The notes under the pieces are model-generated. The model did not search any database and had not been told where the DNA came from. It saw only the letters and a list, made by a program, of their open reading frames with translations. This document shows, piece after piece, positions 3,519 to 40,800 of a stretch of DNA of 64,000 nt (positions within the stretch are counted from its first letter, which is position 1; each line of letters opens with the position of its first letter). The position numbers and the translations under genes were made by a program. Location: contig QKDA01000231.1 in the NCBI GenBank assembly GCA_003246765.1, positions 25-64,024 on the forward strand. Direction: 5' to 3'. Source of the DNA: Spirochaetales bacterium (GTDB taxonomy: Bacteria > Spirochaetota > Spirochaetia > Treponematales > Treponemataceae).

Positions 3519-4196
3519 TTGACAAACGAACAAGTCGATGCGAGAAATTGCAATATTTTCATAATCGGCCCCCAGAACCTTCAAAACGAATTCTTCACCT
3601 ATGTTATCCAGAAGGAGCTTTCGTTTCCCTGTTATCTTTATGACAAGGAATTGAACCCCCTACGGTCCGGAACGGCGGCGAAGGCCGAGGAAGCCGTCGG
3701 TAAAACGCTCCTTTTGATTGACGTGGAATTTCATTGCTTTGAGGAAATTATCGAGGCGGCTTCGGCCAAGCCCCTTTTTACGGATTCCTACGTGGCGTTG
3801 ATAAATCTTAAGGAAAACACCGGAATCGAAAAAAAGGCCCTCTCGAAAAACGTTCGCGGTTTTTTCTATAAAGACGATCATTTCGAGCTGTTCCTCAAGG
3901 GAGTGCGCAATATTCTCAACGGCGAGGTTTGGATTTCCCGGTCGGTATTGCTCCAATGCGTGTACGATGGCTTACGGGATAAACAGGGCGAACCGGAAGC
4001 CCGGAGTTGCCTGACTACCCGGGAAGTCGAAATCCTTTCCCTCGTTAGCCAGGGCGCCAGCAACGACGAAATTGCCCGAAAGATGTTCATCAGCACGAAT
4101 ACCGTGAAGACCCATCTCTATAACATATTTAAAAAAATCAACGTAACCAACCGTCTCCAGGCATCCCAGTGGGCTACCTTAAACATACTTGCGTAG
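3519..4196 (+). CDS. VpsT/CsgD-family LuxR-type transcriptional regulator
   Basis: C-terminal HTH TTREVEILSLVSQGASNDEIARKMFISTNTVKTHLYNIFKKINVTNRLQASQWA is nearly colinear with E. coli CsgD as I remember it. It has a receiver-like N-domain and a W-I-S-R motif at the position of the VpsT c-di-GMP motif. TTG start, with no in-frame ATG near the 5' end. Confidence 0.8.
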   Translation: MTNEQVDARNCNIFIIGPQNLQNEFFTYVIQKELSFPCYLYDKELNPLRSGTAAKAEEAVGKTLLLIDVEFHCFEEIIEAASAKPLFTDSYVALINLKENTGIEKKALSKNVRGFFYKDDHFELFLKGVRNILNGEVWISRSVLLQCVYDGLRDKQGEPEARSCLTTREVEILSLVSQGASNDEIARKMFISTNTVKTHLYNIFKKINVTNRLQASQWATLNILA

Positions 4197-4455: not shown

Positions 4456-6432
4456 ATGAAACGTTTCCTGATTTTCGCAATGGCAAGTTCCGTTGCGTTT
4501 ATGCTTGCATCGTGCGTTGATTTCAACGCGAACGCTAATAACGCTAATTTGTCTGAATTGGTTCTTTCAAGCGGGGAACTAACGCCTGCATTTAAACCGG
4601 ATGTTACGAAGTATACGGTCTCCGTAGATTATACGGTTACGGAAATAACGGCGACGGGAACGGCCGAAAGCGCCGCCGCGACGGTCGGCGGGCAATCTGG
4701 CCAAAGCGTATCCCTGGCGGTAGGAGACACGGATATCGCCATCGAAGTGACTGCCGAGGACGGCGTAACGGTAAAAACCTACACCGTTACCGTGACCCGC
4801 GAAGAAGCGGGCCTGCCTTCTACAAACGCGAATCTTTCCGAAATACTATTGAGCGCGGGAAGCCTGACGCCCGCCTTCGCGCCGAACGTTACCGCGTATG
4901 CCGTATCCGTACCTTACGGGGTGACGGAAATAACGGCGACGGGAACGGCCGTAAGCGCCGCCGCAGCGGTCGGCGGGCAATCGGGGCAAAGCGTTCCCCT
5001 GGCGGTAGGGGAGACGGATATCGCCATCGAAGTGACTGCCGAGGACGGCGTAACGGTAAAAACCTACACCGTTACCGTGACCCGCGAAGAAGCGGTCCTG
5101 CCTTCCACTAACGCGAATCTATCCGAAATAGTATTGAGCGCGGGAAGCCTGACGCCCGCCTTCGCGTCTAACGTGACCGCGTATGCCGTATCCGTACCTT
5201 ACGGGGTGACGGAAATAACGGCGACGGGAACGGCAGAAAGCGCCGCCGCGACGGTCGGCGGGCAATCGGGGCAAAGCGTATCCCTGGCGGTAGGGGATAC
5301 GGATATCGCCATCGAAGTGACTGCCGAGGACGGCGTGACGGTAAAAACCTATACCGTCACCGTGACCCGCGAAGAAGCGGTCCTGCCTTCCGCAAACGCA
5401 AATCTTTCCAAAATAGAATTGAGCGCGGGAAGCCTGACGCCCGCCTTCGCGCCTAACGTGACCGCGTATGCCGTATCCGTACCTTACGGGGTGACGGAAA
5501 TAACGGCGACGGGAACGGCCGAAAGCGCCGCCGCGGCGGTCGGCGGGCAATCGGGACAAAGCGTTTCCCTGGCGGTAGGAGACACGGATATCGCGATCGA
5601 TGTGACGGCCGAGGACGGAGTGACGGTAAAAACCTACACCGTTACCGTGACCCGAGCGAATATCGTCAAGGTAATCAACGCAAACAATTACGATCCTTCC
5701 GCCTTGTCCGACGGTGAAATCCTGGCAGCAGCTTCGCTTGACGTCTATCTCGAACACGCTTCCGTCGGGGGCTATATCACCGGCGGCGCGCCGATCGGAG
5801 ACTGGCCCTTCGATGGATTGGGGGCGCTTGCGGCCGCGGACTCTCGATACGCTTGCGGCCGAGCATCGTGGGAAAGCCCCTCAACGTCTTCTTGGAACGG
5901 GGTAGCGAACGCGGCATGGTTCGACACAAATAACGGGTTGGGAGATCTTTTCAGGGGGAATCCTTCCGCCGCGACCAAGGTGTCTGGGTTTGAGGCTGCC
6001 ATGAACTATTCCGCCGGGGTTTTAGGCGCCGCCGTAGACGTTGCCATGTTTAAATTCTGCTACATCGATTCGCCCGCCTCCTCAACCGTTCAGTTCGATA
6101 CCGCCCGCGCGGCCATAGAGCGGCTGGAAGCAAGTTATCCAAACGTGACCTTCGTGTGGTGGACGATGCCGATCGAGGAAACCGGTAACGCGGCCCGCCA
6201 GGGGTATAACGATCTCGTGCGTACCTACTGCAACGATAACGACAAGTGGCTTTACGATATAGCTGATTTGGAAAGCCATGACGATTCGGGTATGGCCTAT
6301 ACGGATTCTTTCGGCCATGAGGTTCTGTACGCCGGATACAGCCATGACGGGGGACATCCCAACGGCCCGGGTGTTTTTAAACTCGCGAAAGCGTACTGGA
6401 AACTGATCGCCGAAATCGCGAAAACTCGTTGA
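4456..6432 (+). CDS. Secreted lipoprotein: four cadherin-like beta-sandwich repeats plus a C-terminal SGNH-like domain
   Basis: RBS AAGGAG and lipobox MLASC. Four 95-aa repeats (NANLSE..LS.G.LTPAF.P.VT.Y.VSV...VTEITATGTA) resemble the Cadherin-like (PF12733-type) repeat. The C-terminal about 250 aa is paralogous to the product of 12442-13257 (F/MKFCY.D, YPNVTFV, D.GH.NG). Confidence 0.75.
   Translation: MKRFLIFAMASSVAFMLASCVDFNANANNANLSELVLSSGELTPAFKPDVTKYTVSVDYTVTEITATGTAESAAATVGGQSGQSVSLAVGDTDIAIEVTAEDGVTVKTYTVTVTREEAGLPSTNANLSEILLSAGSLTPAFAPNVTAYAVSVPYGVTEITATGTAVSAAAAVGGQSGQSVPLAVGETDIAIEVTAEDGVTVKTYTVTVTREEAVLPSTNANLSEIVLSAGSLTPAFASNVTAYAVSVPYGVTEITATGTAESAAATVGGQSGQSVSLAVGDTDIAIEVTAEDGVTVKTYTVTVTREEAVLPSANANLSKIELSAGSLTPAFAPNVTAYAVSVPYGVTEITATGTAESAAAAVGGQSGQSVSLAVGDTDIAIDVTAEDGVTVKTYTVTVTRANIVKVINANNYDPSALSDGEILAAASLDVYLEHASVGGYITGGAPIGDWPFDGLGALAAADSRYACGRASWESPSTSSWNGVANAAWFDTNNGLGDLFRGNPSAATKVSGFEAAMNYSAGVLGAAVDVAMFKFCYIDSPASSTVQFDTARAAIERLEASYPNVTFVWWTMPIEETGNAARQGYNDLVRTYCNDNDKWLYDIADLESHDDSGMAYTDSFGHEVLYAGYSHDGGHPNGPGVFKLAKAYWKLIAEIAKTR
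4540..5654 (+). repeat. Four in-frame tandem repeats of 285 bp inside the lipoprotein CDS
   Basis: The unit start motif aacgc(g/t/a)aat recurs at 4540, 4825, 5110 and 5395, exactly 285 nt apart. Units 2-4 are near-identical at the DNA level. Confidence 0.9.
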
Positions 6433-6942
6433 CGAAATCCCGTTTCGAGACTGCTCCTGACGGGGGTGGCGAGTCTCTTGATTCAAACATTCGATTACAT
6501 GCGTTCGGTGTCCATTGAGTATCAGGTTTGAATTTAAATAATACCTCAAGGTTCCTTCATAGCCTTTAAGACTGGCGACGAATGCATTCGCAATATTCTG
6601 TGTAGTGATGAATATCAAAATGGATCACTGTTAAAAGTGCGAAGTTAAGCCCCGAGTGTATACCTATGTTTGCGATATGCATTCTCGATACTCATCAACG
6701 TAATGCTTTTTGCGTCAAAAGTATTAGTTGCTTGTAATGGTGTTCGATGGTAACCGATTCAACGTCTCATGTTCGCTACTACTTTAGTAGTAGGACCAGG
6801 GTAGTGATTATTACCGAAAAAAATCTATCAAAATCATACCGCAGGTTCATGGAATGTTATAGAAATTGGAGATATCTTAAGTAAAGTGCATTTTGATTCG
6901 AGTTTTTCTCAAAAGGTTTGATGTTAAGAAGGAGAAGGTATA

Positions 6943-8109
6943 ATGAAAACCTCTAGAAAACGATATCGGATGCCTGGCCTCATTCAAGTTCAACTTTCGA
7001 CCAAAAACAATATTTTTTCCGCTTCTGAATTCGAGTCCCTGGTACGTTACGAGAGAATTCGATCCGACAGGAACGGAAATCATTTTTCAGTCGCGGTTTT
7101 TAGCATGCCCGATATGACCCAGATTATTCCCCAACGGGTTATTTCCGAACTGGCAAACCTATCAAGGGCGATAGATTGCATCGGGTGGAGCGAGTCGAGC
7201 CAGGTAAGCGTTTTATTGCCGGATACGAGCAAAGACGGAGCGGAGGTATTCTCGAAAAAAGTCGTCGAGGGTGTCCTTGAGACCTGTTCGATTTGCATGG
7301 ACGTTTCCCTGTATTCATACCCCGAGCACTGGCTCGCAAATTCGACCGAGTTCGCGTATATCCCGGAGGCTGAACATCAGGAGTTGCGATCCTTTCGCGA
7401 ACGGCTCGAGGTTTTGTTCGTCAAGAAAATACCCGGTTGGAAGCGGGTTACCGACATCACATTCTCGCTCATGCTTGTCGTGCTATGTTTGCCTATTCTT
7501 GCCATAACGGCGATATATATCAAATTGGTGTCTCCCGGACCGGTCATATTCAAGCAAACCAGAATCGGCTACAAGGGACTTCCGTTCACGCTCTATAAGT
7601 TCAGGTCCATGCATGTGGCAAACAACCAGGGCTTTCACGGTAAGCATGCCCAGCAGTTCATCAAGGACGGCGACGTGCCGATGGAAAAACTCGATGGCCA
7701 CGATTCGCGCATCATTTTTGGCGGGAAGATTTTGCGAAAGTCTTGCATCGATGAATTGCCCCAATTATTGAACGTGCTGCGCGGCGACATGAGCTTAGTC
7801 GGCCCGAGGCCTTGCATTCCCTACGAGGCAAAGGAATATTTGCGGTGGCATACGCACCGGTTCGACGTTCTCCCCGGGCTTTCTGGATTATGGCAGGTCA
7901 GCGGAAAAAACAAGCTGACGTTCAAGCAAATGATCAGACTCGATATCACCTATTGCCAAACGATATCCTTCTTTAGGGATATGGCAATCATATTTATGAC
8001 CCCGATATCAATCGTTAAAATGATCGTCGAGGCTATCCTTTCCCGCGAAAGCTTCAAGGCAGACGGAAGCGGCGGATCGGGCCAGAACGGCATGGTCATC
8101 AACCTGTAG
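6943..8109 (+). CDS. Priming polyprenyl-phosphate sugar-phosphate transferase (bacterial sugar transferase, WbaP/EpsB type) with an N-terminal degenerate GGDEF-like domain
   Basis: RBS AAGGAG. C-terminal PGT blocks: KLVSPGPVIFKQTRIGYKGLPFTLYKFRSM, DELPQLLNVLRGDMSLVGPRP, PGLSGLWQVSG. The N-terminal about 130 aa aligns to the GGDEF fold (see finding). Confidence 0.85.
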   Translation: MKTSRKRYRMPGLIQVQLSTKNNIFSASEFESLVRYERIRSDRNGNHFSVAVFSMPDMTQIIPQRVISELANLSRAIDCIGWSESSQVSVLLPDTSKDGAEVFSKKVVEGVLETCSICMDVSLYSYPEHWLANSTEFAYIPEAEHQELRSFRERLEVLFVKKIPGWKRVTDITFSLMLVVLCLPILAITAIYIKLVSPGPVIFKQTRIGYKGLPFTLYKFRSMHVANNQGFHGKHAQQFIKDGDVPMEKLDGHDSRIIFGGKILRKSCIDELPQLLNVLRGDMSLVGPRPCIPYEAKEYLRWHTHRFDVLPGLSGLWQVSGKNKLTFKQMIRLDITYCQTISFFRDMAIIFMTPISIVKMIVEAILSRESFKADGSGGSGQNGMVINL

Positions 8110-8192: not shown

Positions 8193-8333
8193 ATGAAAAA
8201 AACGTACAATGCCCCCCAGCTGAAAACCGAAAAGCTTGAAATCGGCGTATTCGGTGATTACACTGGCGAGTCCCACCACAACTGGAATCCCATCGGAATT
8301 TTGCATCCTCTCTTCGGTTTGTGCTGTAGTTGA
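8193..8333 (+). CDS. 46-aa peptide MKKTYNAPQLKTEKLEIGVFGDYTGESHHNWNPIGILHPLFGLCCS, a candidate RiPP precursor
   Basis: AGGAGG (8181-8186) lies 6 nt before ATG 8193, and an 11-bp-stem hairpin follows the stop. It is shorter than the 66-aa ORF-track entry (8133-8333) in the same frame. Confidence 0.55.
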   Translation: MKKTYNAPQLKTEKLEIGVFGDYTGESHHNWNPIGILHPLFGLCCS

Positions 8334-8407: not shown

Positions 8408-9772
8408 TTAACGAATTTCGTGTATCTTTAGCTTGTACGAAAGGACCCTCTCGGATATCCCCAAAAGTTTCGCTGCTGATTTTTGATTGCCCGACGTCCT
8501 GGTCATCGCTTGGGTTATAAGGCGGTATTCCGCATCCTTCAGCTTAATTCCCTCAGGCGGCAGCTTAATGTACTCGTTATCCGCGGGAATCGGGGCAAAT
8601 CCATCAGCTTGATCGAAAAGCAAATCCAGGTCGTTGATCTGTATCACCGGGCCATCAGACAATAACACGGCCCGGTCCAGGGTGTTTTCCATCTCGCGGA
8701 TATTTCCGGGCCAACGGTAATTCGTCAGCCTCTGTATCGCTTCCGGGGAGAATCCCTTGATCTTCTTTTTCATTTTCGTATTAGAGAGCTTGAGGAAATA
8801 CATGAGGAGCAGGCTTACGTCTCCTTCCCGTTCCCTCAGGGCTGGCAGCCGTATGGTTATCACGTTAAGCCGGTAGAAAAGGTCTTCGCGAAAATGACCG
8901 CTCGCGATCATGGACGTCAGGTTCTTGTTGGTCGCCGACAGGATTCGCACGTCGGTCTTTTTTGTCTCGTTCGACCCGAGTCGCTCGAACTCCTTTTGTT
9001 GGAGCACGCGAAGCAGTTTCGCCTGCGTGACGAGCGAGAGATCGGCAACCTCGTCGAGAAACAGGGTCCCTCCGTCCGCGTATTCGAATCGGCCTACCCT
9101 GGTCCGGTCCGCCCCCGTGAAGGCGCCGCGTTCGTAACCGAACAACTCGCTTTCCAGAAGCTGTTCCGGAAGCGCTGCGCAATTGACCTTAACGTACGGT
9201 CCTTCGGACCGTAAGCTTTTTTCGTGTATTATCTGGGCTATCAGGTCTTTGCCCGTGCCGGTTTCGCCTAGGAGAAGGACGCTAACGTCGGTTCGGCTTA
9301 CCCTCTCTACTTTCCTGAATATCTCCGTGACCGCGGCGCTTTGCCCGATGAACTTCCCGTAGTAGGCCATGCCGCGTTCCGACATTTCTTCCTGGTTTAT
9401 TGCCTTTCGTTTGTTCTCGAAAGCCCGCTTAACCTGGAAATAAAGCTCGGCATCGTAATACGGCTTTTGGACCAGGCGAAAAACGTAAGAGGATGCCTGA
9501 TCCAATTCATGGGTGACGTCGATATTGTTCGGGCAAAGGACTATTATCGCGCATTCGGGCATTTTGCGCTTCAGATCCGGAAGCAACGATTTGATATCGA
9601 TGTCGGGAATGGAATAATCGACGATCAAAACGTCGTAGCTGTCAACTTCGACGAGCGATTCAAGCGCGAGAAAATTTGCCGCGTAGTCGACTTGATGGTC
9701 GAGCACGTTAAAGAACTGGCGAATGTGATCGTAGTTTTCTTCGTTGTTATCGATTATCAGTATCTTTCCCAT
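8408..9772 (-). CDS. Sigma-54-dependent response regulator (NtrC family enhancer-binding protein)
   Basis: Receiver domain (VLIVDYSIPD), AAA+ sigma-54 interaction domain (GETGTGKDLIA, ESELFGYERGAFTGA) and a C-terminal Fis-type HTH (SAAKLLGISERVLSYKLK). Confidence 0.9.
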   Translation of the reverse strand: MGKILIIDNNEENYDHIRQFFNVLDHQVDYAANFLALESLVEVDSYDVLIVDYSIPDIDIKSLLPDLKRKMPECAIIVLCPNNIDVTHELDQASSYVFRLVQKPYYDAELYFQVKRAFENKRKAINQEEMSERGMAYYGKFIGQSAAVTEIFRKVERVSRTDVSVLLLGETGTGKDLIAQIIHEKSLRSEGPYVKVNCAALPEQLLESELFGYERGAFTGADRTRVGRFEYADGGTLFLDEVADLSLVTQAKLLRVLQQKEFERLGSNETKKTDVRILSATNKNLTSMIASGHFREDLFYRLNVITIRLPALREREGDVSLLLMYFLKLSNTKMKKKIKGFSPEAIQRLTNYRWPGNIREMENTLDRAVLLSDGPVIQINDLDLLFDQADGFAPIPADNEYIKLPPEGIKLKDAEYRLITQAMTRTSGNQKSAAKLLGISERVLSYKLKIHEIR

Positions 9773-9941: not shown

Positions 9942-12440
9942 TTGCAGCAGATCGCGGAAATAGTGCAGGAACGGGAGTTCGGTCCTGACGAATTGATATT
10001 TGCGGAAAAAACGGAAGCCCATCATTTTTATATAATCGTCAGGGGCAAGGTAGAGATATCGAAGCTTTTTGAGGACGGCGAAAGGGCCGTTTTGTGCATT
10101 TTAAGCGACGGGGCCTTCTTCGGCGAAATCGCCTTACTCGACGAGGGGAAGCGTTCTTCCACCGTCACGGCGATCGAGCCCACGCTCGTCCTCATGATCT
10201 CGAAGGCAGATTTTGAGGGCTTGCTGTTTAGCGCCCCGGTTTTGACCCACCATATAATGCGCGAGCTGGGGTCTAGATTGCGTGAAACCGACGCGTTGCT
10301 GATATCGCACCTGACGCACAGGAATAAACAGTTATATCGCGCGTACATCGACACCATGACCCTTATCATCGATACGATAGAGTCGAGGAATATGCTTCCC
10401 GCGAGACAGAGCGCCAGGGTTACCGCGCTGGCGCTGGAATTGGGGAGGCAATTAGGCCTTGGCGAGATGGATCTTTTCCTCCTCGAGCTCAGCGCCCTTC
10501 TTCATGATCTCGGCATGTACACTATCCCTGACGAAACGCTGAACGCGAAATCAGTCTTGTCCGACGACGAGTTATCGACGATCCAGGCGCACAGCACAGA
10601 AAGCGCCAATATGGTTTCCTCGATTCCGATGCTACAGAAAATAATCCCTTTGATACGGCATCACCATGAGTGGTACAATGGGGGCGGTTATCCGGGCAAA
10701 ATCGGGGGGCGCGCCATACCGCGCGTAAGCCGGATCCTGGCGATCGCCGACGCCTACGTATCGATGACGGGGAATAGGCCGTACAGGGATAAAATGTCGA
10801 GAAATGAGGCGCTTGACGAAATACGCCGGCTTTCGGGGTCGCAGTTCGATCCCGAGTTTTCGGAGGTCTTCCTGAAGATGATGGGCACGAATATCCTGGA
10901 CCCGTTGAGCGGGATCGATGAATTGCAAAAAAAATTTACGGAGAAAGAAATGAATTTGGCTGACTACCTCTTGGTAAACGGGAAGGATGGCGATATCGCG
11001 GTCATTGACGGCGATCATCGGGTAACTTACGCTGAATTGAGGGACAAGGCAGGCTTGATCGCCGCTCAATTGAGCGAACGCGGATTGAAACCCGGGGATG
11101 CCGTGGGTATTCTCGGCCAGAACTCGGTGTTCTGGGTCGCCTCTTACCTCGCCGTACTGAAACTTTCCCTCATCGCGGTTCCTTTCTCGATTCTGTTGAC
11201 TCCCGAGGAGATATCGAGAAACGCGGAATGGGCCAAGTGCAAGGGCGTGCTGATGGATCGGCGCCAACAGAAAAAGTTCGACGGCGCGTTTCCCCCCGCG
11301 CTACCCCGGTTGCTTGACGATATCCTTGACGGGCCCGGGAAACCGCTTTGGCCCCATGCCTCGTCCTCCTTCGACACCCAAGCCGCCGCCGCCTACATGT
11401 TCACTTCGGGTACCACATCGAGGCCCAAGGCCGTCAGGATAACCCACGCCAATATCCAAAGCAATACGGCCAGCATAATCGAGTATCTCAGTCTCGCCAA
11501 AAGCGATCGCATGCTGGTTATTTTACCGTTCTTCTACTGTTTCGGCACGTCGCTCCTGCATACGCACCTGAGGGTCGGGGGGAGCGTGGTTATATGCAAT
11601 AGCTTCACCTTCCCCGAAATGGCGCTCGACCTGATGCAGCGTGAAGAGTGCACCGGTTTTGCCGGAGTTCCCTCCTCGTACCAGCTCCTCTTGAGGATAA
11701 GCACCTTTAAAACCCGGGAATTCCCGAAGTTGCGCCTGTTACAGCAAGCGGGGGGGAAATTGCATTCGGTATTGCTCGAGGAGTTGATGGAAAGCAAGCC
11801 AAACGTAAGGATCTTCGTGATGTACGGACAAACCGAGGCAACGGCGCGCTTGTCCTATTTACCGCCCGAAATGCTGCGGGATAAAATCGGTTCCATCGGC
11901 AGGGGAATCCCGGGCGTAACGCTCAGGGTTATGGGCGAGAACGGCGAGCCCGTGAAGCCGGGAGCGATTGGCGAAATTTATGCCCGCGGCGGGAATATAT
12001 CGCCCGGGTATTTAAACGATCCCGAGAGTACTGCCGCGAAATTCGTGGATGGGGAGCTTCATACGGGCGATTTGGCGATGCAGGACGAACAGGGATACAT
12101 CTTCGTGGTCGACCGAAAGGAAGACTTCATCAAGTCCTGGGGTTATCGGGTCAGCAGCCAGGAAGTCGAAAGCTGCGTGCTCGGCTTGCCGAACGTGGTT
12201 TCCGCCGCCGCGGTGGGCATTCCGGACTTGAGCGCCGGGGAATCGATCCACGTGTTCATCACGGTCAAACCGGGAACGGCCGTGAACGAAGAAACGGTAA
12301 TCGCAAGATGCCGCTCCCGCCTTGGAAAGCACATGATTCCGCAAAAGGTTCACGTAATAAAGGCGATGCCGCTAAATTCCAACGGGAAGGTGATGAAAAC
12401 CGCCTTAAGGCAAATGGCCAACGATGCCGGGGAGGGCTGA
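9942..12440 (+). CDS. Triple-domain fusion: cNMP-binding, HD-GYP, and AMP-forming acyl/aminoacyl ligase
   Basis: cNMP block FGEIALLDEGKRSSTVTA. HD-GYP blocks LLHDLGMY and HHHEWYNGGGYPGK. Adenylate-forming blocks MFTSGTTSRPKAV, YGQTEA and GDLAMQDEQGYIFVVDRKEDFIKSWGYRVS. TTG 9942 is the first canonical start, but the domain appears to begin upstream (frame open from 9861; see finding). Confidence 0.85.
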   Translation: MQQIAEIVQEREFGPDELIFAEKTEAHHFYIIVRGKVEISKLFEDGERAVLCILSDGAFFGEIALLDEGKRSSTVTAIEPTLVLMISKADFEGLLFSAPVLTHHIMRELGSRLRETDALLISHLTHRNKQLYRAYIDTMTLIIDTIESRNMLPARQSARVTALALELGRQLGLGEMDLFLLELSALLHDLGMYTIPDETLNAKSVLSDDELSTIQAHSTESANMVSSIPMLQKIIPLIRHHHEWYNGGGYPGKIGGRAIPRVSRILAIADAYVSMTGNRPYRDKMSRNEALDEIRRLSGSQFDPEFSEVFLKMMGTNILDPLSGIDELQKKFTEKEMNLADYLLVNGKDGDIAVIDGDHRVTYAELRDKAGLIAAQLSERGLKPGDAVGILGQNSVFWVASYLAVLKLSLIAVPFSILLTPEEISRNAEWAKCKGVLMDRRQQKKFDGAFPPALPRLLDDILDGPGKPLWPHASSSFDTQAAAAYMFTSGTTSRPKAVRITHANIQSNTASIIEYLSLAKSDRMLVILPFFYCFGTSLLHTHLRVGGSVVICNSFTFPEMALDLMQREECTGFAGVPSSYQLLLRISTFKTREFPKLRLLQQAGGKLHSVLLEELMESKPNVRIFVMYGQTEATARLSYLPPEMLRDKIGSIGRGIPGVTLRVMGENGEPVKPGAIGEIYARGGNISPGYLNDPESTAAKFVDGELHTGDLAMQDEQGYIFVVDRKEDFIKSWGYRVSSQEVESCVLGLPNVVSAAAVGIPDLSAGESIHVFITVKPGTAVNEETVIARCRSRLGKHMIPQKVHVIKAMPLNSNGKVMKTALRQMANDAGEG

Positions 12441-12441
12441 C

Positions 12442-13257
12442 ATGTCGTTCGCGCGAGGTAACCTAATAAAGACAGTCGTCATGATCTGCATGTCCGTATC
12501 GCTTACGGCATGCAAGGCGGATATTACGGGGGATGATTCGATGTTAAGCACCGTTCTCGGCAAGCTTCAGGATAGGGCCGTTTTTTTTGGGCATCAATCG
12601 GTCGGGCTGAATATTCTCGACGGGCTACGTGAGACATCAAAAAGGCTCGGGGCCGCCGAACCGGAGATCATCGAGACGCGGTCGCCTCCCGCTCAACGGG
12701 TACCGGGCGTCTACCACGCGATGATAGGCCAGAACGAAAGACCGCTCGAAAAAATAGCCGATTACGAATCGATCATGAGGGGCGGCATGGCCGAAGTTGT
12801 GGACGTTTCCTTCATGAAATTCTGCTATGTCGATTTTAACGAGAAAACCGATACGGAGTCCCTCTTTGAGGCGTATCGGAGTGTCATGTCCGGACTCGAG
12901 CGGGATTATCCGAATGTAACGTTCGTTTACCTGACGGTTCCCCTTCGGGCGGAGAGCCTCAAGGATCGTGTCAAGAATATCCTCGGCAGGTCGACTGACT
13001 CGCGCGAGGCAAACCTGAACCGGGAACGCTTCAACAGGCTGGTGAGGGCCGAGTACGCGGGAAAAAACCCGTTCTTCGACCTGGCCCTGGCGGAAGCCTC
13101 CTCGCGGAACGGAAACGTTATCGCGAGGAGATTCTCCGGGGAAACCTATTACTTGCTGCGGCGCGAATATACCGAAGATTTTGGCCACCTGAACGGTGAG
13201 GGTCGCTCTCGGGTAGTCGCCGCCATGTTGAGCGCTTTCTCGGGCTTCCTGGATTGA
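12442..13257 (+). CDS. Lipoprotein with an SGNH-like hydrolase/acyltransferase fold (tentative)
   Basis: ATG lies 1 nt after the ligase stop. Lipobox SLTAC. Blocks FFGHQSVG, IGQN and DFGHLNG are in the order of SGNH blocks I, III and V. It is paralogous to the C-terminus of the 4456-6432 product. Confidence 0.55.
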   Translation: MSFARGNLIKTVVMICMSVSLTACKADITGDDSMLSTVLGKLQDRAVFFGHQSVGLNILDGLRETSKRLGAAEPEIIETRSPPAQRVPGVYHAMIGQNERPLEKIADYESIMRGGMAEVVDVSFMKFCYVDFNEKTDTESLFEAYRSVMSGLERDYPNVTFVYLTVPLRAESLKDRVKNILGRSTDSREANLNRERFNRLVRAEYAGKNPFFDLALAEASSRNGNVIARRFSGETYYLLRREYTEDFGHLNGEGRSRVVAAMLSAFSGFLD

Positions 13258-13268: not shown

Positions 13269-14801
13269 TTACCGCGCGAGAACGAAGAACGTAAGCAGCG
13301 TTATCGAGAGGGATACCACCGAAGCAAGGACGGGAACCCTTCGCTCGAGACCGTATAGCAAACTGTTCTCCTTGACGTGAATTTGGTCACCTGCCTGGAT
13401 AGGCTCTCCTTTTTTCCGCCTGTTCCCGTTTTGATCGTAAACGATGCAGGAACGGAAGTCGTTTCTCCACGGGTCAACGCCGCCGGCGAGGATCAAGTAA
13501 TAATTAGCCGGGGCGTTTGGCCGATACGGAACCATACCCGGCGCGTACACCGCTCCGGAAACCAGGACGGTGGTACTCACTTCCGGAATAACGATGCGGT
13601 ATCCCTCGGAAAGCTGCACGTCCGTTGACATATCGGTTCCGCTGAGGAGGGACGTGATGTCCACTCGGGAGCCCACCAGGGAATTGGGATGAAAGAGCAC
13701 CGCGGAAGAGAGATCGGCCATGGGGAGAAACCCTCCCCGAATTTCCTGCAATACGTCGGAGAGCAGCTGGCCTTCCCTGATCGGGTAGGAAAACCGCCCT
13801 CCGGTACCGGATGCGGGGGCATCCTGTCCCGTCGCGGCGCCCGTAACCCCGGACCCCTGCATGCGAACCGGTTCGTCGCCAGCGGCGTTTTCCCTCGCCG
13901 GGGCCGTAACGGAACCCTCGAACCAGATGCGTGAAAATTGATCGGACTTTGCCCTGACGATCACGCGGTCTCCGTCCTCCAGGACGATCCTGCTTTGATA
14001 GGCGTCGGGAATCGAAACGTAAACGCTTTCCGCGGTCGAGCCGGCGGACCGGTCAATACGAACTCGTTTTCCGTCAGCCTGACTCGTCAGGCCGCCGGCG
14101 AATACCTCGACCAATTGGTATATTCCTTCGGAGCCGAGAATCTCGTAATTTCCGGGTTTTCTGACTTCTCCCTGAATCTCCACCGTTTTGGCCGGAGGGT
14201 GGAGAATAACGGTGTCGCCCGGATGCATCAACGGATCGAGCCCGGGGTCTTGCAGAAGCTTGGCGTTAACCAGATCGTATAAGCTTGAATGGCCTTCCTG
14301 CGTGAGAATTTCTATCCTGCGCGACGAGTAGGAGGTGGATTCCAGCTGGGATACGATATCCCCGAGCCGCGAAAGGCCCCAGGCCTGGACGTACTGTACA
14401 GGCGAAGTTCCCTCCGAAACCTTTACGCGAAAGGTTCCTGGCATGATGATCGAGAGATACGGCTGGCTGAACGGGTATTTCTTCACGATTAGCGCCTCTA
14501 CCTCCCTTTTGGTTTCGATGAACGTCTTGCCGTTTGACTCGTATTTGCCGAAAGAACCCAGATCCAGCACGAGGCTTTCGTCCACCAACAAGTCCGAATT
14601 TACCACCGTCCCGCCGGTTTGGCGGTAGCTAAGGCGGTATTGGTCTCCGAAGGTCACCGGATAATCAAGGCTCGTCAGGGCGATGCTCAGATGATCCTCG
14701 GTGTTCGAGGCCGGTTGCGGTGCCGTCTGTTGGGCGGCCGCACTGAACGGGTTACTGAGGGCGAGTATGAGTAAGGCGTAAACTATATTTTTGGTGCGCA
14801 T
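13269..14801 (-). CDS. Polysaccharide export protein (Wza/SLBB type)
   Basis: Signal peptide MRTKNIVYALLILALSNPFSAAAQ after RBS AAAGGAG. Recurrent xGDxIxV blocks typical of Poly_export/SLBB domains (HPGDTVIL, EDGDRVIV, QAGDQIHV). C-terminal TM helix. Confidence 0.7.
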   Translation of the reverse strand: MRTKNIVYALLILALSNPFSAAAQQTAPQPASNTEDHLSIALTSLDYPVTFGDQYRLSYRQTGGTVVNSDLLVDESLVLDLGSFGKYESNGKTFIETKREVEALIVKKYPFSQPYLSIIMPGTFRVKVSEGTSPVQYVQAWGLSRLGDIVSQLESTSYSSRRIEILTQEGHSSLYDLVNAKLLQDPGLDPLMHPGDTVILHPPAKTVEIQGEVRKPGNYEILGSEGIYQLVEVFAGGLTSQADGKRVRIDRSAGSTAESVYVSIPDAYQSRIVLEDGDRVIVRAKSDQFSRIWFEGSVTAPARENAAGDEPVRMQGSGVTGAATGQDAPASGTGGRFSYPIREGQLLSDVLQEIRGGFLPMADLSSAVLFHPNSLVGSRVDITSLLSGTDMSTDVQLSEGYRIVIPEVSTTVLVSGAVYAPGMVPYRPNAPANYYLILAGGVDPWRNDFRSCIVYDQNGNRRKKGEPIQAGDQIHVKENSLLYGLERRVPVLASVVSLSITLLTFFVLAR

Positions 14802-14894
14802 CGCGGAATTCCTTTCTCCTTTACGGTCCAAGGCCGACGGTAACTGGTACGCCAGTTATCTTTCTGGTATCTTGTATCAATTCGAGGATACTAC

Positions 14895-18555: not shown

Positions 18556-19548
18556 TCAAAAGCTTGCTTTCTTTTTCAGCCGTATGGCGCGTAAAACGCT
18601 CAGGAGTACCGCCAGGATGGAGCTTCCCACAAAGCTTCCGCCGAATGCCATCATGACGAATACCGATCTGCGCGGTCCCGATTTTTCGTCGGGGGTTTCG
18701 GCCAATTCAAAGATTTGAAAGATCTGTTCGTATTCCGACGAAAGCTTCGCGGCCTCGAATTGGGGTGAGAGGGTATTGTAGATGCGCTGCTGCACCTCAA
18801 GCTCGTTCGTCAGTTGATTGAATTCTTCCGCGACCGAATACAAACCGGCGCCGAGCTCATTCCCGCTCATGACGCCGTATCTTGTCCGGAGGCTTTGAAG
18901 CCGTTTCTGGATCGTTATGATTTGACCGTCGACCTCGGTGAGCTTTTTTTCAAGCAATTCCCGTTTGCGCTGCTTGTCGAGGTTGTAATTATCCTTTACC
19001 CACCGGTCCAGCAGCTCGACGAGGCGGTTTACGATATCCCGGGCCATGACGGGATCGGTATCGGTATACATGATGCTGAGCATTCCCGTAGTCGGGCTGA
19101 AGTAATACCTCAGATGGCCCATCACCACGTTTCGGGCCTGACCTTTCGCCGATTCGGGTATACCGTACCGGTCATTCAGGCTGAATTCCTTGATCAGGGA
19201 GTCGATCAGCGTCCTGCTCCGTAAGACCTCCATGAGCATGGCGCTGCTGTTGAAGGAATTGGTACCGACTGCCGCGGATGCGCCCATCGCCTCCAGTATC
19301 GTGTCGGCGATGTTGTTCTGGTCGTTTTGCTGCACGATGATGATCGCGTTCGCCGAGTATTGATTCGGCATCGGGCTTTGATCCGGGGGAAGCATTACGC
19401 TGACGTAGCAGTAAACCACGACCGCGGCCGTTACTACGAACGTGACGCTCATTATCAGCCATTTATAGGCCAACAGGATATTCAGGAAATAAATCAATCC
19501 GTCGAGCAGGCTTCGCTCTCCCGGATCCTTAAGGTCTTCTATTACCAC
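18556..19548 (-). CDS. Wzz/GumC-like polysaccharide chain-length determinant, no kinase domain
   Basis: N-terminal TM, then a long coiled periplasmic region and a C-terminal TM (FVMMAFGGSFVGSSILAVLL). This is Wzz-type topology and length. Confidence 0.65.
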   Translation of the reverse strand: MVIEDLKDPGERSLLDGLIYFLNILLAYKWLIMSVTFVVTAAVVVYCYVSVMLPPDQSPMPNQYSANAIIIVQQNDQNNIADTILEAMGASAAVGTNSFNSSAMLMEVLRSRTLIDSLIKEFSLNDRYGIPESAKGQARNVVMGHLRYYFSPTTGMLSIMYTDTDPVMARDIVNRLVELLDRWVKDNYNLDKQRKRELLEKKLTEVDGQIITIQKRLQSLRTRYGVMSGNELGAGLYSVAEEFNQLTNELEVQQRIYNTLSPQFEAAKLSSEYEQIFQIFELAETPDEKSGPRRSVFVMMAFGGSFVGSSILAVLLSVLRAIRLKKKASF

Positions 19549-21499: not shown

Positions 21500-21975
21500 T
21501 TTTCGTGACCGTGGGGACCCAGCTCGCGTTCGATCGACTCGTGACAGCCATGGATACGTGGGCTCGCGAGCATCCCGAGGAGAAAATATTCGCCCAAATT
21601 GGCCCCTCAAAACTCAAGGATTTGGCGTTCCCGAGCGAACCCTTCGTCTCGCCGTCACGGGCGGACGCGCTTTTTCGCGATGCCGACCTTATCGTCTCGC
21701 ACGCGGGAATGGGTTCCATCCTGGCGGCGCTCAAATACAGGAAGCCCCTGATCGTCCTTCCGAGAAGGGCGGATCTCGGCGAGCACCGGAACGATCACCA
21801 GGCTGCGACGGTGAAATGGCTGGGCGACAGGCCCGGGATTCACGGCGCTTCGACGGAACGGGAACTTTTCGGGCTTTTGAACAGCCGCGGCGATTTGACG
21901 GAGGGGCCGGGAATCTCCGATTCCGCCGCCCCGGAATTAATTCACTTTTTGAGAAATTACTTTGACACAAACTGA
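21496..21975 (+). CDS. Alg13-like (PssE-type, GT28 C-terminal domain) glycosyltransferase catalytic subunit
   Basis: MIFVTVGTQLAFDRLV, VSHAGMGSILAAL, EHRNDHQ. Its start overlaps the upstream stop (ATGA). Confidence 0.75.
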   Translation: MIFVTVGTQLAFDRLVTAMDTWAREHPEEKIFAQIGPSKLKDLAFPSEPFVSPSRADALFRDADLIVSHAGMGSILAALKYRKPLIVLPRRADLGEHRNDHQAATVKWLGDRPGIHGASTERELFGLLNSRGDLTEGPGISDSAAPELIHFLRNYFDTN

Positions 21976-23515
21976 TATCGCGTTGACAGACGAAACACCG
22001 ACGGGTGCCGGAACGCCCATGGCGGAGTCCCGGGCGACGGAATCCCCGCCATCGCCGAACGCGGCGCCCTCGACCCTGAACCGGTTGATCCGGGGAACGC
22101 TTTGGAACGGGCTGTCACAGTTCGGTACCCAGGCGTTCAATATGCTCATCACCATTTTACTGGCGCACCGGCTCGTGCCCGACGACTTCGGCCTCTTCGG
22201 CATGGTCGTGGTATTCACCGCGTTCATCGGCTATCTTTCCGAATTCGGGCTTACCGCCGCGCTGATCCAAAGGAAAGACGCGGACCAGCTCGATATCGAT
22301 ACGGTCTTCTGGAGCTCGTTGATACTTTCCGCGGTCCTTTACCTGGCCGTGTACCTTGCCGCTCCCGCGATAGCGTTTTTTTATAAAGAGCCCCGATTAA
22401 CCCTGGTGACGCGGGTGATATTCCTGACTTTTTTGGTCATGCCCCTCAACTACATACCTGAGGTCATACAGACGAAGAAACTGCAGTACGGGATCATCAC
22501 CGCGGCGGAAATAACGAGCGTGATCGTCTCGGGCCTGATCGCGGTCGCGATGGCGTACGCCGGGATGGGGCCATGGAGCCTCGTCGGGCAAGCCCTCTCG
22601 AAAACGGCGGTTCGCGCGGCCGTTCTCGTCGTCCTGACGAGATGGACGCCCAGGTTGGCGTTCTCGATGAAACGGCTCGCCAATCTTGCCGACATGGGCG
22701 TGCACGTTACGCTCAACAACCTGATGATGTTCGCGGCGGATAACGTCGATTACCTCCTCGTCGGCAAATTGCTCGGCCAGAACGCCCTCGGCCTCTACAC
22801 GATGGCCTTTCGCGTCTCCAAATACCCGATACAAAAAATCGTGGGCATTTTCGGGAAGATGCTCTTTCCCGTCTTTTCCACGTTCAACGACGAACCGGAA
22901 CGGGTCAACCGCAATTTTCTCAGGCTGCTGGTTTTCTTTCTCTCCTGGGTAACGCCGGCGCTCATTTTCGGCTTCTTCGCCGCCGAACCGTTGGTGCTCA
23001 TCGTGCTCGGCTACAAGTGGGTGAATATCGTGCCCTTGGTGAAGATATTCATGGTTTACCTGGTCATCAACAGCTTTTGCCTGCAAAACCAGCCGATTTT
23101 CGTCGCCCTCGCCCGCGTCAAGATTTGGAACCTCGTTCAGTTTCTGTCGACGGTCCTCCTTGCGCTGTGCGGTTTTGCGGGCATACGCTTCCTCGGTTTG
23201 CGGGGAATGGCTATCGCCTTTACCGCCGTTACGAGTCTTTCCTTGATAGTGATTTCCGGCATTCTCATCAAAATATTGAAAATGCCCTTCGCTTCCTTTA
23301 TCGTAACGGTAAGGATGCACTTTCTGAATAATATACTGCTCGTTGGGGTGCTTGCGGCCCTGGTCCCCTTCGTCGGGGGTTATTCCCAAAACGAATGGGT
23401 AAGGCTCGCGATACCCGCGATCGCCCTGTGCGCCTGGATGGGCATAGTCAACAGGCGGGATTTGGCCGCGCTGGCGGGAAGACTGGCGGCAAGGCGCCGG
23501 ACGAAAGGAGAATAG
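21962..23515 (+). CDS. Wzx-type (MOP family) polysaccharide flippase
   Basis: About 12-14 predicted TM segments, with an N-terminal block LIRGTLWNGLSQFGTQAFNMLITILLAHRLVPDDFGLFG typical of polysaccharide biosynthesis proteins. The start is uncertain (TTG 21962 or ATG 22019). Confidence 0.75.
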   Translation: MTQTDIALTDETPTGAGTPMAESRATESPPSPNAAPSTLNRLIRGTLWNGLSQFGTQAFNMLITILLAHRLVPDDFGLFGMVVVFTAFIGYLSEFGLTAALIQRKDADQLDIDTVFWSSLILSAVLYLAVYLAAPAIAFFYKEPRLTLVTRVIFLTFLVMPLNYIPEVIQTKKLQYGIITAAEITSVIVSGLIAVAMAYAGMGPWSLVGQALSKTAVRAAVLVVLTRWTPRLAFSMKRLANLADMGVHVTLNNLMMFAADNVDYLLVGKLLGQNALGLYTMAFRVSKYPIQKIVGIFGKMLFPVFSTFNDEPERVNRNFLRLLVFFLSWVTPALIFGFFAAEPLVLIVLGYKWVNIVPLVKIFMVYLVINSFCLQNQPIFVALARVKIWNLVQFLSTVLLALCGFAGIRFLGLRGMAIAFTAVTSLSLIVISGILIKILKMPFASFIVTVRMHFLNNILLVGVLAALVPFVGGYSQNEWVRLAIPAIALCAWMGIVNRRDLAALAGRLAARRRTKGE

Positions 23516-33178: not shown

Positions 33179-34957
33179 TTATTGCTGTATCAAGGCTCCG
33201 GTTTCATAGTCCACGCAGTTCTCGAACGCGGCCTTGTTCGGATTCGAGGGATACACGTACCCCGCCAAGCCCCCGATTATTCTGCAATCCTTGAACCGCA
33301 CGTTCGCCGCATTCGAATACACGGTGTAGTAGAACGCGCCCTTTTCCAGGAACTCGCAGGAATCCAGCAGGGTGTTTCCCGCGTTTACGTTCACCGCGGA
33401 AGTCTGTCCCGTTACTCCGGCCTCGTAGGGCCCGGGGGTCGTGAAACGTACCCGGGTGAAAGTCATACCGTTGCCGCCCAGGGCCTGAAGGGTGTCGACA
33501 TGGTTCGACGGGGTCCCCAGCAGCGTGATCGAGAAGATGCTATCCTCTACGACGCAGGGCGTAGGGCTGGTGGTATCCTGCTGGCCGGTCAAACCGGTCG
33601 GGCGGAACGCCTTGCGGTCGCCGACGATTCTGGTCCACTTCACGGTCCAGTTGGTCTGTCCGCCGTATTCGAAGTAGATGCCGCCGAATACGTAGGTATG
33701 ATCAAGGAGAACCGTTCTCGAAACGCCGCTTCTGCCGTCAAAGACCCCGAAACCCGCGTCAAAACTGCAATCCCGGAATACGTAGGCGCCGGTATTGTTC
33801 TGTAACGACACGGAGGTGGTAAACCGGTATCCTTCGTAGGTTCCGGCGGGCAGGCTGCCGCCGGTCCTTGAGGTAAGGGCAACGCGGGGTCCAACCTGGC
33901 TTTCGGAAGGCGGACCGGCATAGGTAGAGGGCGCGGCCGCGGTTACGGTAAAGGTGGCGGTTGCGGACCCGGCGCGGGCTCCGTCGAGGGTCATGGCGGT
34001 TACGTCGACCCGGTAGGAACCGGCGGTCAGGGGCGAAGCGGAACCGTTCAGGGGAAGGGCGGCGCCTGAACCCGCGGAGGAGCCGTTAAGGAACCAGGAA
34101 TAGCTTACGTTCGAGGCGTTTGCGTCGCTGGACGCGGTGAGGGTGATAGCCGTTCCCGACGCGACGCTGCTGCTTACGTTGCCGATGGTTACGGTAAGGG
34201 GATCGGAGAGCGAAGGCGAAACCTCGATATCCACGCCGCCGGAGGGAACCATGAGATCCGGGAACGATACGGTTCCGCTGGAGGTTTCACCCGCCACTAT
34301 ACGGACGATGTCTACAGCGCTCGCCACGGATTCGCTTCCGTCAAGCAGGTTGACGCTGAGGGTATAGTAACCGGCCTCGACCTGATCGTCGACGGTGGCC
34401 TTGTTTACCCCTATCGCGGCGGTCAGGGGAATATGCACGTTGCCGGCGTTAATGAGTTCGACGATTGCCGATGGGTTTATAACGGCCCCGGGGGTCCAAT
34501 CTATCGTAAGATCCAAGGTACCCGGTCCCGTATACGGCTTAACGCTGATGTCGAGGGTGACGGTAGCCCCGCCGGTTACCGTAGTGACGCCGGTTCCAAG
34601 GCCGATCGATTTACCCTGCGCGTTTTTGGCGACGGTGGTGACCGTCCAGGTTCCCGCCGACAGGTTGGGAATGGTGACGGAAGAACCCAAAGAGGTCGTC
34701 GTAAAGGTATCTGAATTGGAACCCGTTCCCGATATCTCGTAGCTCGCCGGGGTCATGCTTATGGTCGGGGCTATCGTTCGCGACGCGTTGTCGATGAACG
34801 AAACGACCAACACGCCTTTTGCCGGTTCCGGGGCAGGCGCTTCCGGTTCGAGGGCGGGTTGCATTGAGCAGCCCATTTCGAGTAGCGCAGCAAGACCAGA
34901 CACTAATATCGCAAAAAGCATTTTACTTTTAATATTTGTGGGATGACGAGTAGCCAT
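33179..34957 (-). CDS. Large lipoprotein: Ig-like/beta-sandwich N-terminal region plus paralog 3 of the unassigned domain
   Basis: RBS AAGGAG lies 7 nt before ATG 34957. Lipobox LEMGC. About 330 aa of Thr/Ser/Val-rich beta-strand repeats, then the shared C-terminal domain. Confidence 0.75.
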   Translation of the reverse strand: MATRHPTNIKSKMLFAILVSGLAALLEMGCSMQPALEPEAPAPEPAKGVLVVSFIDNASRTIAPTISMTPASYEISGTGSNSDTFTTTSLGSSVTIPNLSAGTWTVTTVAKNAQGKSIGLGTGVTTVTGGATVTLDISVKPYTGPGTLDLTIDWTPGAVINPSAIVELINAGNVHIPLTAAIGVNKATVDDQVEAGYYTLSVNLLDGSESVASAVDIVRIVAGETSSGTVSFPDLMVPSGGVDIEVSPSLSDPLTVTIGNVSSSVASGTAITLTASSDANASNVSYSWFLNGSSAGSGAALPLNGSASPLTAGSYRVDVTAMTLDGARAGSATATFTVTAAAPSTYAGPPSESQVGPRVALTSRTGGSLPAGTYEGYRFTTSVSLQNNTGAYVFRDCSFDAGFGVFDGRSGVSRTVLLDHTYVFGGIYFEYGGQTNWTVKWTRIVGDRKAFRPTGLTGQQDTTSPTPCVVEDSIFSITLLGTPSNHVDTLQALGGNGMTFTRVRFTTPGPYEAGVTGQTSAVNVNAGNTLLDSCEFLEKGAFYYTVYSNAANVRFKDCRIIGGLAGYVYPSNPNKAAFENCVDYETGALIQQ

Positions 34958-35157
34958 AAAGAACTCCTTGGCGCCGGAAATTAATTTCGTGTGTCCGACG
35001 CACTGGAGATATAGCAATGAATGTGCCAACTGACAATTTTTTTTAAAGCGGTTATTTCTTTGCGGGATAAAGAAATAATTAAATGGCCATTTTAGGCGAT
35101 TTAAGAAATAAGTCCATTCTGATAATTACAATTTTGGAGAGAGATACGAATTTGTAA

Positions 35158-37993: not shown

Positions 37994-38026
37994 ACCGCCC
38001 CCCTTGTTACCTGACAAGCATTTACC

Positions 38027-38055
38027 TTGACAGTAGCTCCAGATGCATAATAATC
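38027..38055 (+). promoter_or_regulatory. Candidate sigma-70 promoter of the maturation-like cassette
   Basis: TTGACA (38027-38032), followed at 15-17 nt by the overlapping TAATAA/AATAAT/ATAATC. About 30 nt upstream of ATG 38086. Confidence 0.35.
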
Positions 38056-38085
38056 TTTAATATCTCAATAAGTTATTGTAAGGGA

Positions 38086-40524: not shown

Positions 40525-40800
40525 ATGAATCGCGGGAGTGTCCTTAAAACGAAAGAGGGATTTACGGTCAGAAAAATGGGCGAGGAAACCCTTTTCCTTA
40601 ACGCCAACGGGTCCGCCATCCATGTTGCCGACGAGCTTGGCAGTTTTATCTATTCCCGGATAGACGGAGTGCGGACCATTGCCCAGATACTCTCGGATAT
40701 ACTTTCCGAATACGAGGTTGATAAGTCCGTCGCGGAGAAAGACCTTTTGTCCTATCTAGATTCCCTCATTACCCAGGAAATCGTGGAAACGCTTCAATGA
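40525..40800 (+). CDS. PqqD-family peptide chaperone (RiPP recognition element)
   Basis: 91 aa with the typical layout: beta-strands (FTVRKMGEETLFLNANGSAIHVADELGSFIY) followed by helices (TIAQILSDILSEYEVDKSVAEKDLLSYLDSL). Confidence 0.75.
   Translation: MNRGSVLKTKEGFTVRKMGEETLFLNANGSAIHVADELGSFIYSRIDGVRTIAQILSDILSEYEVDKSVAEKDLLSYLDSLITQEIVETLQ

Follow-up and report, generated by a model that had tools for sequence, protein, structure and literature searches.

Direct post-translational control of exopolysaccharide (EPS) production by cyclic di-GMP (c-di-GMP) is well established for the synthase-dependent cellulose, alginate, Pel and poly-N-acetylglucosamine (PNAG) systems, and degenerate GGDEF-type sensors that detect c-di-GMP at the inhibitory site (I-site) and activate EPS machines include PssE of Listeria and YdaK of Bacillus. 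In the Pel system, the receptor PelD acts by recruiting the glycosyltransferase PelF, and in cellulose production the GIL domain of BcsE, also a degenerate GGDEF domain, senses c-di-GMP at its I-site and activates the EPS machine (PMC8461298). How Wzx/Wzy pathways are controlled after translation is not yet fully understood, c-di-GMP control having been characterized for synthase-dependent pathways, and in Myxococcus xanthus the EpsW-EpsZ pair illustrates an initiating phosphoglycosyl transferase (PGT) of a Wzx/Wzy pathway that is placed under the post-translational control of a signaling domain (PMC12802240). In a 64,000-nucleotide stretch of a Spirochaetales genome (contig QKDA01000231.1 of assembly GCA_003246765.1; hereafter the window), the gene at positions 6943..8109 (+) encodes a 388-residue protein in which a truncated GGDEF-like domain with an RxxD motif at the I-site position is fused to a small monotopic PGT. 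The domain is referred to here as mini-GGDEF, because it is shortened both internally and at its C-terminus. Conservation of the I-site residues, together with analogy to known receptors, indicates that c-di-GMP probably gates the priming PGT of a Wzx-dependent EPS pathway directly, through a receptor domain built into the enzyme. The fusion had been noticed in a preliminary description of this DNA; that observation is confirmed here, and sequence and predicted structure, to the extent that they can, support its interpretation, the function itself being what we infer from them.

The gene follows an AGGAG ribosome-binding site read from the sequence (6930..6934, +), which lies 8 nt before the ATG start codon, and the full-length query has over 100 orthologues that span the two halves of the protein (116 full-length, 41-64% identity), the named ones being from Spirochaetales, Treponema and Spirochaeta isovalerica. 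A full-length model built on these 116 orthologues (predicted local distance difference test, pLDDT, 89; predicted TM-score, pTM, 0.85) arranges the protein, in order, into the mini-GGDEF domain within the N-terminal ~110 residues (residues 24-127; 7012..7323), two linker helices that connect the sensor with the membrane anchor (residues 128-156; 7324..7410, from the predicted secondary structure), a helix-break-helix (residues 165-181 and 183-196; 7435..7530) and the catalytic core. The helix-break-helix is predicted to form a re-entrant membrane helix of the PglC type, on the basis of the model and of the Foldseek match to PglC. The catalytic domain of phosphoglycosyl transferases, or bacterial sugar transferases (PF02397), spans residues 167-358 (7441..8016) with an E-value of 9.9e-57 and 191.8 bits against a gathering cutoff of 27, and the C-terminal region of TIGR03025 matches the PGT half with E=6.4e-71. 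In Foldseek comparisons, this half aligns with the PglC structures 8g1n and 8e37 at 35-36% identity and target-normalized TM-scores (TMt) of 0.75-0.79 (E=4.2e-12 and TMt 0.76 for 8g1n), and with the catalytic domain of WbaP (8t53) at E=1e-9. The residues D270-E271 (7750..7755), within a DELPQ motif, are invariant in the 116 orthologues and occupy the position of the catalytic Asp-Glu dyad, a role that we assign by analogy with what we take to be D93-E94 of PglC. The re-entrant helix-break-helix predicted by the model, the dyad and the PglC fold are the marks of PglC-type enzymes, which load the first sugar-1-phosphate onto undecaprenyl phosphate. Assignment to the large monotopic PGTs of the WbaP/WcaJ/EpsZ type was considered and rejected, as TIGR03025, TIGR03023 and TIGR03022 match in their C-terminal ~185 positions only and all below their cutoffs. 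The protein is hence a small monotopic PGT of the PglC type that carries a cytoplasmic extension at its N-terminus, its membrane insertion being predicted from the model, and such an extension is consistent with a re-entrant anchor because such an anchor leaves both ends of the protein in the cytoplasm. The claim of the preliminary description that the N-terminal domain is joined to the priming sugar transferase is borne out, and the transferase is intact as judged by the PF02397 match and by the PglC fold.

The identity of the N-terminal domain is not apparent from its own sequence. Residues 1-166 alone retrieve no GGDEF match in Pfam or NCBIfam even at E<=10, the N-domain alone has no sequence match in the PDB, and a word-indexed protein search returned no homologue either with the N-domain alone or with a profile of 88 sequences. 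The GGDEF relationship becomes visible only with a family profile and with the structure. To recruit the family, HMMER was run in full over 1.84 billion cluster representatives and supplemented by the full-length query, and an alignment of 88 diverse copies of the domain (A2) was the source of both the family profile and a domain model. Searched against the PDB, the profile matches 3ign (E=1.7e-13), GcbC (5.8e-10), DgcR (1e-8) and WspR (7e-8), with 18 GGDEF chains below 1e-3. When the 88 members are scanned singly, PF00990 is found in 40 of them (E<=1), PelD_GGDEF (PF16963) in five and GGDEF_2 in four, and at E<=1e-3 PF00990 matches 11 of 149 cluster representatives. The AlphaFold2 model of the domain (pLDDT 86, pTM 0.81) shows an alpha0-beta1-alpha-beta2-beta3-alpha-beta4 topology with four strands only, and its best 50 Foldseek matches in the PDB, at query-normalized TM-scores (TMq) of 0.61-0.79, consist of GGDEF domains only; the N-terminal half of the full-length model likewise matches GGDEF domains, including those of PelD (4dmz/4etz). 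The empty single-sequence searches of Pfam, NCBIfam and the PDB would be expected if the likeness were a chance motif match in an unrelated N-terminal domain, a reading that is refuted by the profile E-value of 1.7e-13, by fold matches confined to GGDEF domains and by an end-to-end alignment with the structure 6khu at a root-mean-square deviation (rmsd) of 2.0 A, and whose probability can be regarded as negligible. The mini-GGDEF domain is almost certainly of GGDEF ancestry. Of the two checks that the preliminary description had put forward for this ancestry, a GGDEF hidden Markov model of Pfam run on the PGT protein gave no match even at E<=10, and a structure prediction of the N-terminus returned the GGDEF fold. 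Its statement that the first ~130 residues follow the GGDEF pattern holds with regard to profile and fold, and needs correction in one respect: the domain is a shortened one, not a full-size degenerate GGDEF.

The register of the domain relative to canonical GGDEF proteins is defined by the alignment of the family profile with c-di-GMP-bound 3ign, in which the profile segment RsiDeiGwldeerigvlLpeT is placed by HMMER opposite RQSDSAGRYGGEEFGIILPET. In this alignment, R75-A-I-D78 (7165..7176; codons AGG GCG ATA GAT) coincides with RQSD of 3ign and, in the corresponding profile alignment, with RSSD of WspR, while E84-S-S-Q-V88 (7192..7206) lies opposite GGEEF and LLPDT opposite the following strand. 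The RxxD motif hence precedes the degenerate slot by five residues (CIGWS, residues 79-83), as it does in I-site receptors of the PelD and BcsE type. The same register had been proposed in the preliminary description from the letters alone, and all of its landmarks (residues 30-55, FESLVRYERIRSDRNGNHFSVAVFSM; R75-A-I-D78; CIGWS; ESSQV; and, directly after ESSQV, residues 89-107, SVLLPDTSKDGAEVFSKKV) are found at their assigned positions in the translation. Conservation was assessed over 278 aligned domains, comprising 160 domains from representatives of 50%-identity clusters and 118 from orthologues, and the GG[DE]EF motif is present in none of them (0/278), in agreement with the earlier view of the catalytic site as degenerate. 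The losses extend beyond this motif. In every alignment, canonical GGDEF domains require an insertion of 9-11 residues relative to mini-GGDEF at FKxxNDxxGH, the loop that carries guanine-binding residues in GGDEF domains; the DxD slot of beta1 is not conserved in the family; and the alignments end at about residue 120 of canonical chains of ~170 residues, the model terminating after beta4 at Y124-S-Y126-P127 (7312..7323), the YxYP signature that marks the C-terminus of the domain in the mini-GGDEF family. The C-terminal ~45 residues, a third of a normal GGDEF domain, are absent. A complete GGDEF domain of ~160 residues is ruled out by the internal deletion and the missing C-terminal strands and helix, and an active diguanylate cyclase by the ESSQV slot and the lack of GG[DE]EF throughout the family. 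No cyclase capacity is expected, because GG(D/E)EF, the substrate loop between alpha1 and alpha2, the metal-binding aspartate of beta1 and the C-terminal phosphate-binding part have all been lost.

Against this background of loss, R75 and D78 are retained in every domain of both sets (160/160 representative and 118/118 orthologue domains), which upholds the preliminary description of an intact RxxD located upstream of the GG(D/E)EF slot at a distance of five residues. The RxxD motif is dispensable for the GGDEF fold, and many active cyclases do without it; its invariance in 278 of 278 domains therefore points to a function at that site. Nearly as constant are E37, R40 and R43 of the helix alpha0 motif E37-R-x-R40-x-D-R43 (7051..7071), each present in 156/160 representative and 118/118 orthologue domains (274/278 overall), and outside the I-site G81 is kept in 158/160 and 113/118 domains, respectively, and Y126 in 149/160 and 118/118, with Y126 invariant in A2 and P127 among the orthologues. 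The RxxD register also agrees with that of PleD, whose I-site we take to be formed by R359xxD362 and R390. The I-site of WspR (R242xxD245 and R198) stands in the same register as R75xxD78 and R43, and the family pattern E-x-x-R-x-x-R lies opposite E192-W-R-R195-S-L-R198 of WspR (numbering counted back from R242), such that R43 is aligned with R198, the second I-site arginine. In WspR, R242 and, from a neighboring GGDEF domain, R198 bind c-di-GMP at the I-site; mutation of either arginine abolishes binding, the R242A and R198A proteins being nucleotide-free upon purification (PMC2270323). Judged by alignment, both arginines and the aspartate of the cyclase I-site are hence retained, under strict selection, in a domain family that has discarded the active site.

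These features suggest a mechanism in which c-di-GMP, probably as an intercalated dimer, would bind R75 and D78 of the RxxD motif, and the site would be completed by alpha0 R43 of a second mini-GGDEF domain, contributed by another protomer or by a tandem copy, as in WspR and PleD. Binding would drive dimerization or re-orientation of the sensor domain, and the change would be relayed through the linker helices (residues 128-156) to the re-entrant helix and the active site, altering transferase activity. To judge from the analogous cases of PelD, BcsE, Alg44 and BcsA, the PGT would most likely be activated when c-di-GMP is high, in which case repeat-unit assembly and the attendant consumption of undecaprenyl phosphate would begin only in the biofilm state. 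On the conservation evidence, binding of c-di-GMP by the mini-GGDEF domain appears fairly likely, and for a direct gating of PGT catalysis by the ligand the chances seem evenly balanced.

Several observations weigh against this interpretation, beginning with the silence of single-sequence searches described above. The third I-site arginine is not a family-wide feature. The corresponding position is K106 (7258..7260), 28 residues past D78, a spacing that presumably equals that between D362 and R390 of PleD; it holds K or R in 97/118 orthologue domains and in 53/160 domains across the wider family, where D (41 of the 160) is found alongside K (33) and R (20). In PelD, the analogous residue R402 is needed to bind c-di-GMP (PMC8461298), and its equivalent here, K106, is not conserved across the family. 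This variability is the main weak point of the c-di-GMP binding hypothesis. In addition, W82 stands where canonical domains have an arginine just before GGDEF. PglC-type PGTs have moreover been reported to be monomeric (PMC12802240), which makes a dimerization switch a less than obvious fit, and whether c-di-GMP would activate or inhibit the PGT is judged by analogy with other receptors.

The distribution of the domain provides a further perspective on its function. At E<=1e-3, the HMMER scan places mini-GGDEF proteins in 525 clusters at 50% identity, and neither Pfam nor NCBIfam has a model dedicated to the family. Among 149 representatives, 59 (~40%) carry a PGT domain, 52 of them with one mini-GGDEF, six with two and one with three, and the tandem copies mostly retain both RxxD and the alpha0 arginine; within the 64-kb window there is no second copy. 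A further 78 of the 149 are shorter than 200 residues and may be either proteins that stand alone or pieces of genes on short contigs. Single representatives combine two mini-GGDEF copies with a WecG/TagA-family glycosyltransferase (P0161) or place the domain between a receiver (REC) domain and a PilZ domain (P0250), and these architectures therefore suggest that the association of mini-GGDEF with early lipid-linked glycan steps and with c-di-GMP is not confined to PGTs. That the GGDEF fold has lost a third of its length and that the position equivalent to R390 and R402 varies could also be accommodated by a domain that acts independently of any ligand, as a dimerization, scaffold or docking module for a Wzx/Wzy-pathway protein, a co-polymerase or a kinase, in which the two arginines and the aspartate make protein-protein or intramolecular contacts and form no nucleotide pocket. 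The full-length pTM of 0.85 suggests a fixed packing of both halves, tandem copies could merely form an oligomerization platform, and control of a PGT by protein contact has a precedent in EpsW-EpsZ (PMC12802240). Such a module, however, does not account for an RxxD motif that is invariant in 278 of 278 domains although the fold does not need it, nor for the co-invariance of R43, the counterpart of R198, with which WspR completes its c-di-GMP site; and the same residues recur in short, possibly stand-alone forms, in the WecG fusion and in the REC-PilZ protein, where a contact specific to PGTs offers no explanation. A ligand-independent role is hence considered unlikely. The distribution of I-site residues is compatible with a broader proposal, to be taken as tentative and granted slightly less than an even chance, in which an I-site-only mini-GGDEF family of at least 525 clusters, occurring in one to three copies on PGTs, in a WecG/TagA fusion and possibly in stand-alone form, would supply c-di-GMP receptors to enzymes that start lipid-linked glycan assembly, switched by the ligand-bridged pairing of two mini-GGDEF domains.

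The genomic context of the fusion gene is consistent with a role in c-di-GMP signaling. On gene content, the locus is a Wzx-type EPS cluster, with genes for Wzz (18556-19548), a Wzx flippase (21962-23515) and a 520-residue SLBB-domain outer-membrane polysaccharide export (OPX) protein (13269-14831, -) whose matches to PEP-CTERM export models are no better than weak and which shows synteny with the PGT in many loci. Adjoining the OPX gene is a gene for a 277-residue protein with no family match (12424-13257), syntenic in two related loci (L006 and L007), and further genes near the PGT encode AsnB, NAD-synthase-like and Alg14/Alg13-like proteins, several glycosyltransferases of families GT2 and GT4 and an acetyltransferase. 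The related loci come from Spirochaetales, Treponema, Breznakiellaceae and one Pirellulales. In 13 of 17 such loci, a VpsT-like regulator lies directly upstream of the PGT gene. Here, this VpsT/CsgD-like regulator of the LuxR family (3519-4196, +) combines PF21155 (VpsT-like_REC) with GerE, and matches the CsgD model at E=1e-32, below its cutoff. The c-di-GMP motif of VpsT is reportedly W[F/L/M][T/S]R, as Krasteva and colleagues are said to have found in 2010, and the W-I-S-R of the regulator stands at what we take to be the same position. In most related loci the regulator is a direct neighbor of the PGT gene; in the window the two are separated by a gene for a lipoprotein with four near-identical cadherin-like beta-sandwich repeats of ~95 residues and a C-terminal domain without a Pfam match (4456-6432, +). 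Downstream of the PGT gene lies a gene for a fusion of cyclic nucleotide monophosphate (cNMP)-binding, HD-GYP (HD ... HHEWYNGGGYP) and acyl-CoA ligase domains (9942-12440, +; Pfam cNMP_binding, HD_5, HD and AMP-binding), which is syntenic in three related loci (L007-L009) and whose ligase part resembles the exosortase-A-associated ligase TIGR03098, below cutoff. The synteny of the VpsT-like regulator suggests a paired transcriptional and post-translational control by c-di-GMP, in which the adjacent regulator would add a parallel transcriptional layer.

The functional interpretation is strengthened because RxxD is invariant in a family where the active site is lost everywhere, because R43 corresponds to R198 of WspR, and because VpsT-like and HD-GYP partners and a REC-mini-GGDEF-PilZ relative accompany the domain. 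The same neighborhood bears on the nature of the ligand. The neighboring HD-GYP protein also has a cNMP-binding domain, the pocket is remodeled by W82 in place of the canonical arginine, by an extra conserved Arg at position 73 in 102/160 representative domains and by the variable position 106, and there are PleD structures with both (p)ppGpp and c-di-GMP bound (9g85, 9g86), all of which would suit a pocket for another nucleotide, such as 3'3'-cGAMP, c-di-AMP or (p)ppGpp, or for feedback by UMP or a UDP-sugar. To our knowledge, however, every characterized RxxD I-site binds c-di-GMP. The VpsT-like and HD-GYP partners in the locus are of c-di-GMP type, as is the PilZ fusion found in a relative, and the RxxD I-sites of PelD and BcsE (PMC8461298) and of WspR (PMC2270323) bind c-di-GMP, such that a different nucleotide ligand is regarded as quite improbable.

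Transcriptional signals in the vicinity of the gene were also inspected. The 510-nt leader (6433-6942) contains no c-di-GMP riboswitch or other Rfam RNA, the only Rfam hit elsewhere in the window being one tRNA. A sigma-54 activator is encoded next to the PGT gene (8408-9772, -), and no sigma-54 promoter is found upstream of the PGT gene within two mismatches. The sole zero-mismatch sigma-54 -24/-12 consensus in the window, TGGCACATTCATTGCT, lies at 35013-35028 (-), at the listed 5' end of an open reading frame (ORF) with no family match (33179-35029, -); the true start of this ORF may lie further downstream, with the TGGCACATTCATTGCT site as its promoter. Immediately after the PGT gene, a 46-residue ORF (MKKTYNAPQLKTEKLEIGVFGDYTGESHHNWNPIGILHPLFGLCCS; 8193-8333, +) starts 84 nt past the stop codon. 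The three closest loci (L001-L003) have it at the equivalent place, with 55-63% identity and a C-terminal FGLCC[SG], and it has no NCBIfam match; its product may be a small peptide that is secreted or modified. Elsewhere in the window, a gene for EarP, the arginine rhamnosyltransferase of elongation factor P (EF-P), is followed by efp (145-1650, +), a pair that is kept in two of those loci (L002 and L003). The EF-P of the window shares 89-91% identity with EF-P of Spirochaetes metagenome-assembled genomes, in keeping with a Spirochaetota origin. A radical S-adenosylmethionine (SAM)/SPASM enzyme (40797-41804, +) is encoded next to an uncharacterized nucleotidyltransferase (37975-39195), the two possibly forming a peptide-modification system.

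If the proposed gating is correct, Wzx/Wzy-type EPS production would come under direct post-translational control by c-di-GMP, a form of control so far known for synthase-dependent pathways only. With a receptor inside the initiating PGT, the signal would act where scarce undecaprenyl phosphate is committed, and such a receptor, if built in as proposed, would provide a simple one-polypeptide system for studying the allosteric control of a monotopic PGT. In the absence of a dedicated domain model, hundreds of proteins labeled only as sugar transferases carry this sensor-like module unrecognized.

Comparison with characterized systems places the protein at the junction of I-site receptors and monotopic PGTs. 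In full-text literature searches, no PGT was found to be described as GGDEF-like or as binding c-di-GMP, in line with the preliminary description, which was aware of no characterization of the architecture; a bioinformatic survey, as cited in PMC12802240, reports fusions of regulatory (receiver) domains in small monotopic PGTs, and the survey may list such a fusion. The best structural match to the domain model is 6khu, a 131-residue "DGC protein" from Thermotoga maritima for which no publication was found in the literature search, aligned to residues 23-135 over 113 columns with a TMq of 0.79. It has the same shortened size, shows no large gap and shares the C-terminal SYPE motif of the family, so that a shortened GGDEF relative has in effect already been crystallized; it differs from mini-GGDEF in having R-V-P-L-D (RxxxD) in place of RxxD and QHQRAFEEN in place of ERxRxDR. 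In active cyclases, the I-site mediates feedback inhibition by the product of the activity that the domain itself has, whereas the output of a mini-GGDEF that lacks cyclase activity would go to the fused PGT; the bridging of two GGDEF domains by the ligand, as seen in WspR and PleD, is what is proposed for mini-GGDEF as well.

With regard to receptors, PelD of Pseudomonas aeruginosa presents the same combination of a dead GGDEF domain with a retained RxxD, and serves as a c-di-GMP receptor for the post-translational control of a polysaccharide. It is, however, a separate protein with four transmembrane helices, a GAF domain and a full-size GGDEF domain, operating in a synthase-dependent pathway, whereas mini-GGDEF comprises ~110 residues, has no GAF domain and is covalently fused to its putative target, a polyprenyl-phosphate PGT of a Wzx pathway. 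Membership in the PelD family proper was accordingly rejected, given that a GAF domain is missing, that the sole membrane element in the model is the re-entrant helix of the PGT, and that the locus encodes Wzx, Wzz and OPX components and is not a pel locus. BcsE, PssE and YdaK differ in another way, being stand-alone or membrane-anchored partners of processive GT2 synthases, and none of them resides on a priming PGT.

With regard to the transferase, the C-terminal half shares its fold, its DE dyad and its predicted re-entrant helix with PglC of Campylobacter, the prototype of small monotopic PGTs, which lacks an N-terminal extension. WbaP, whose catalytic domain also matches this half, is a large monotopic PGT with four transmembrane helices and a different cytoplasmic domain (a nucleotide-binding DUF). 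In the M. xanthus pair, the regulator EpsW is a phosphorylated receiver protein in its own right, and its target EpsZ is a large dimeric monotopic PGT, whereas in the spirochaetal protein the nucleotide-sensor-like domain is fused to a small monotopic PGT. The regulatory logic proposed for this protein is therefore a familiar one, and its novelty would reside in an I-site receptor-like module that appears to have been miniaturized and joined to the enzyme that primes a Wzx-type pathway.

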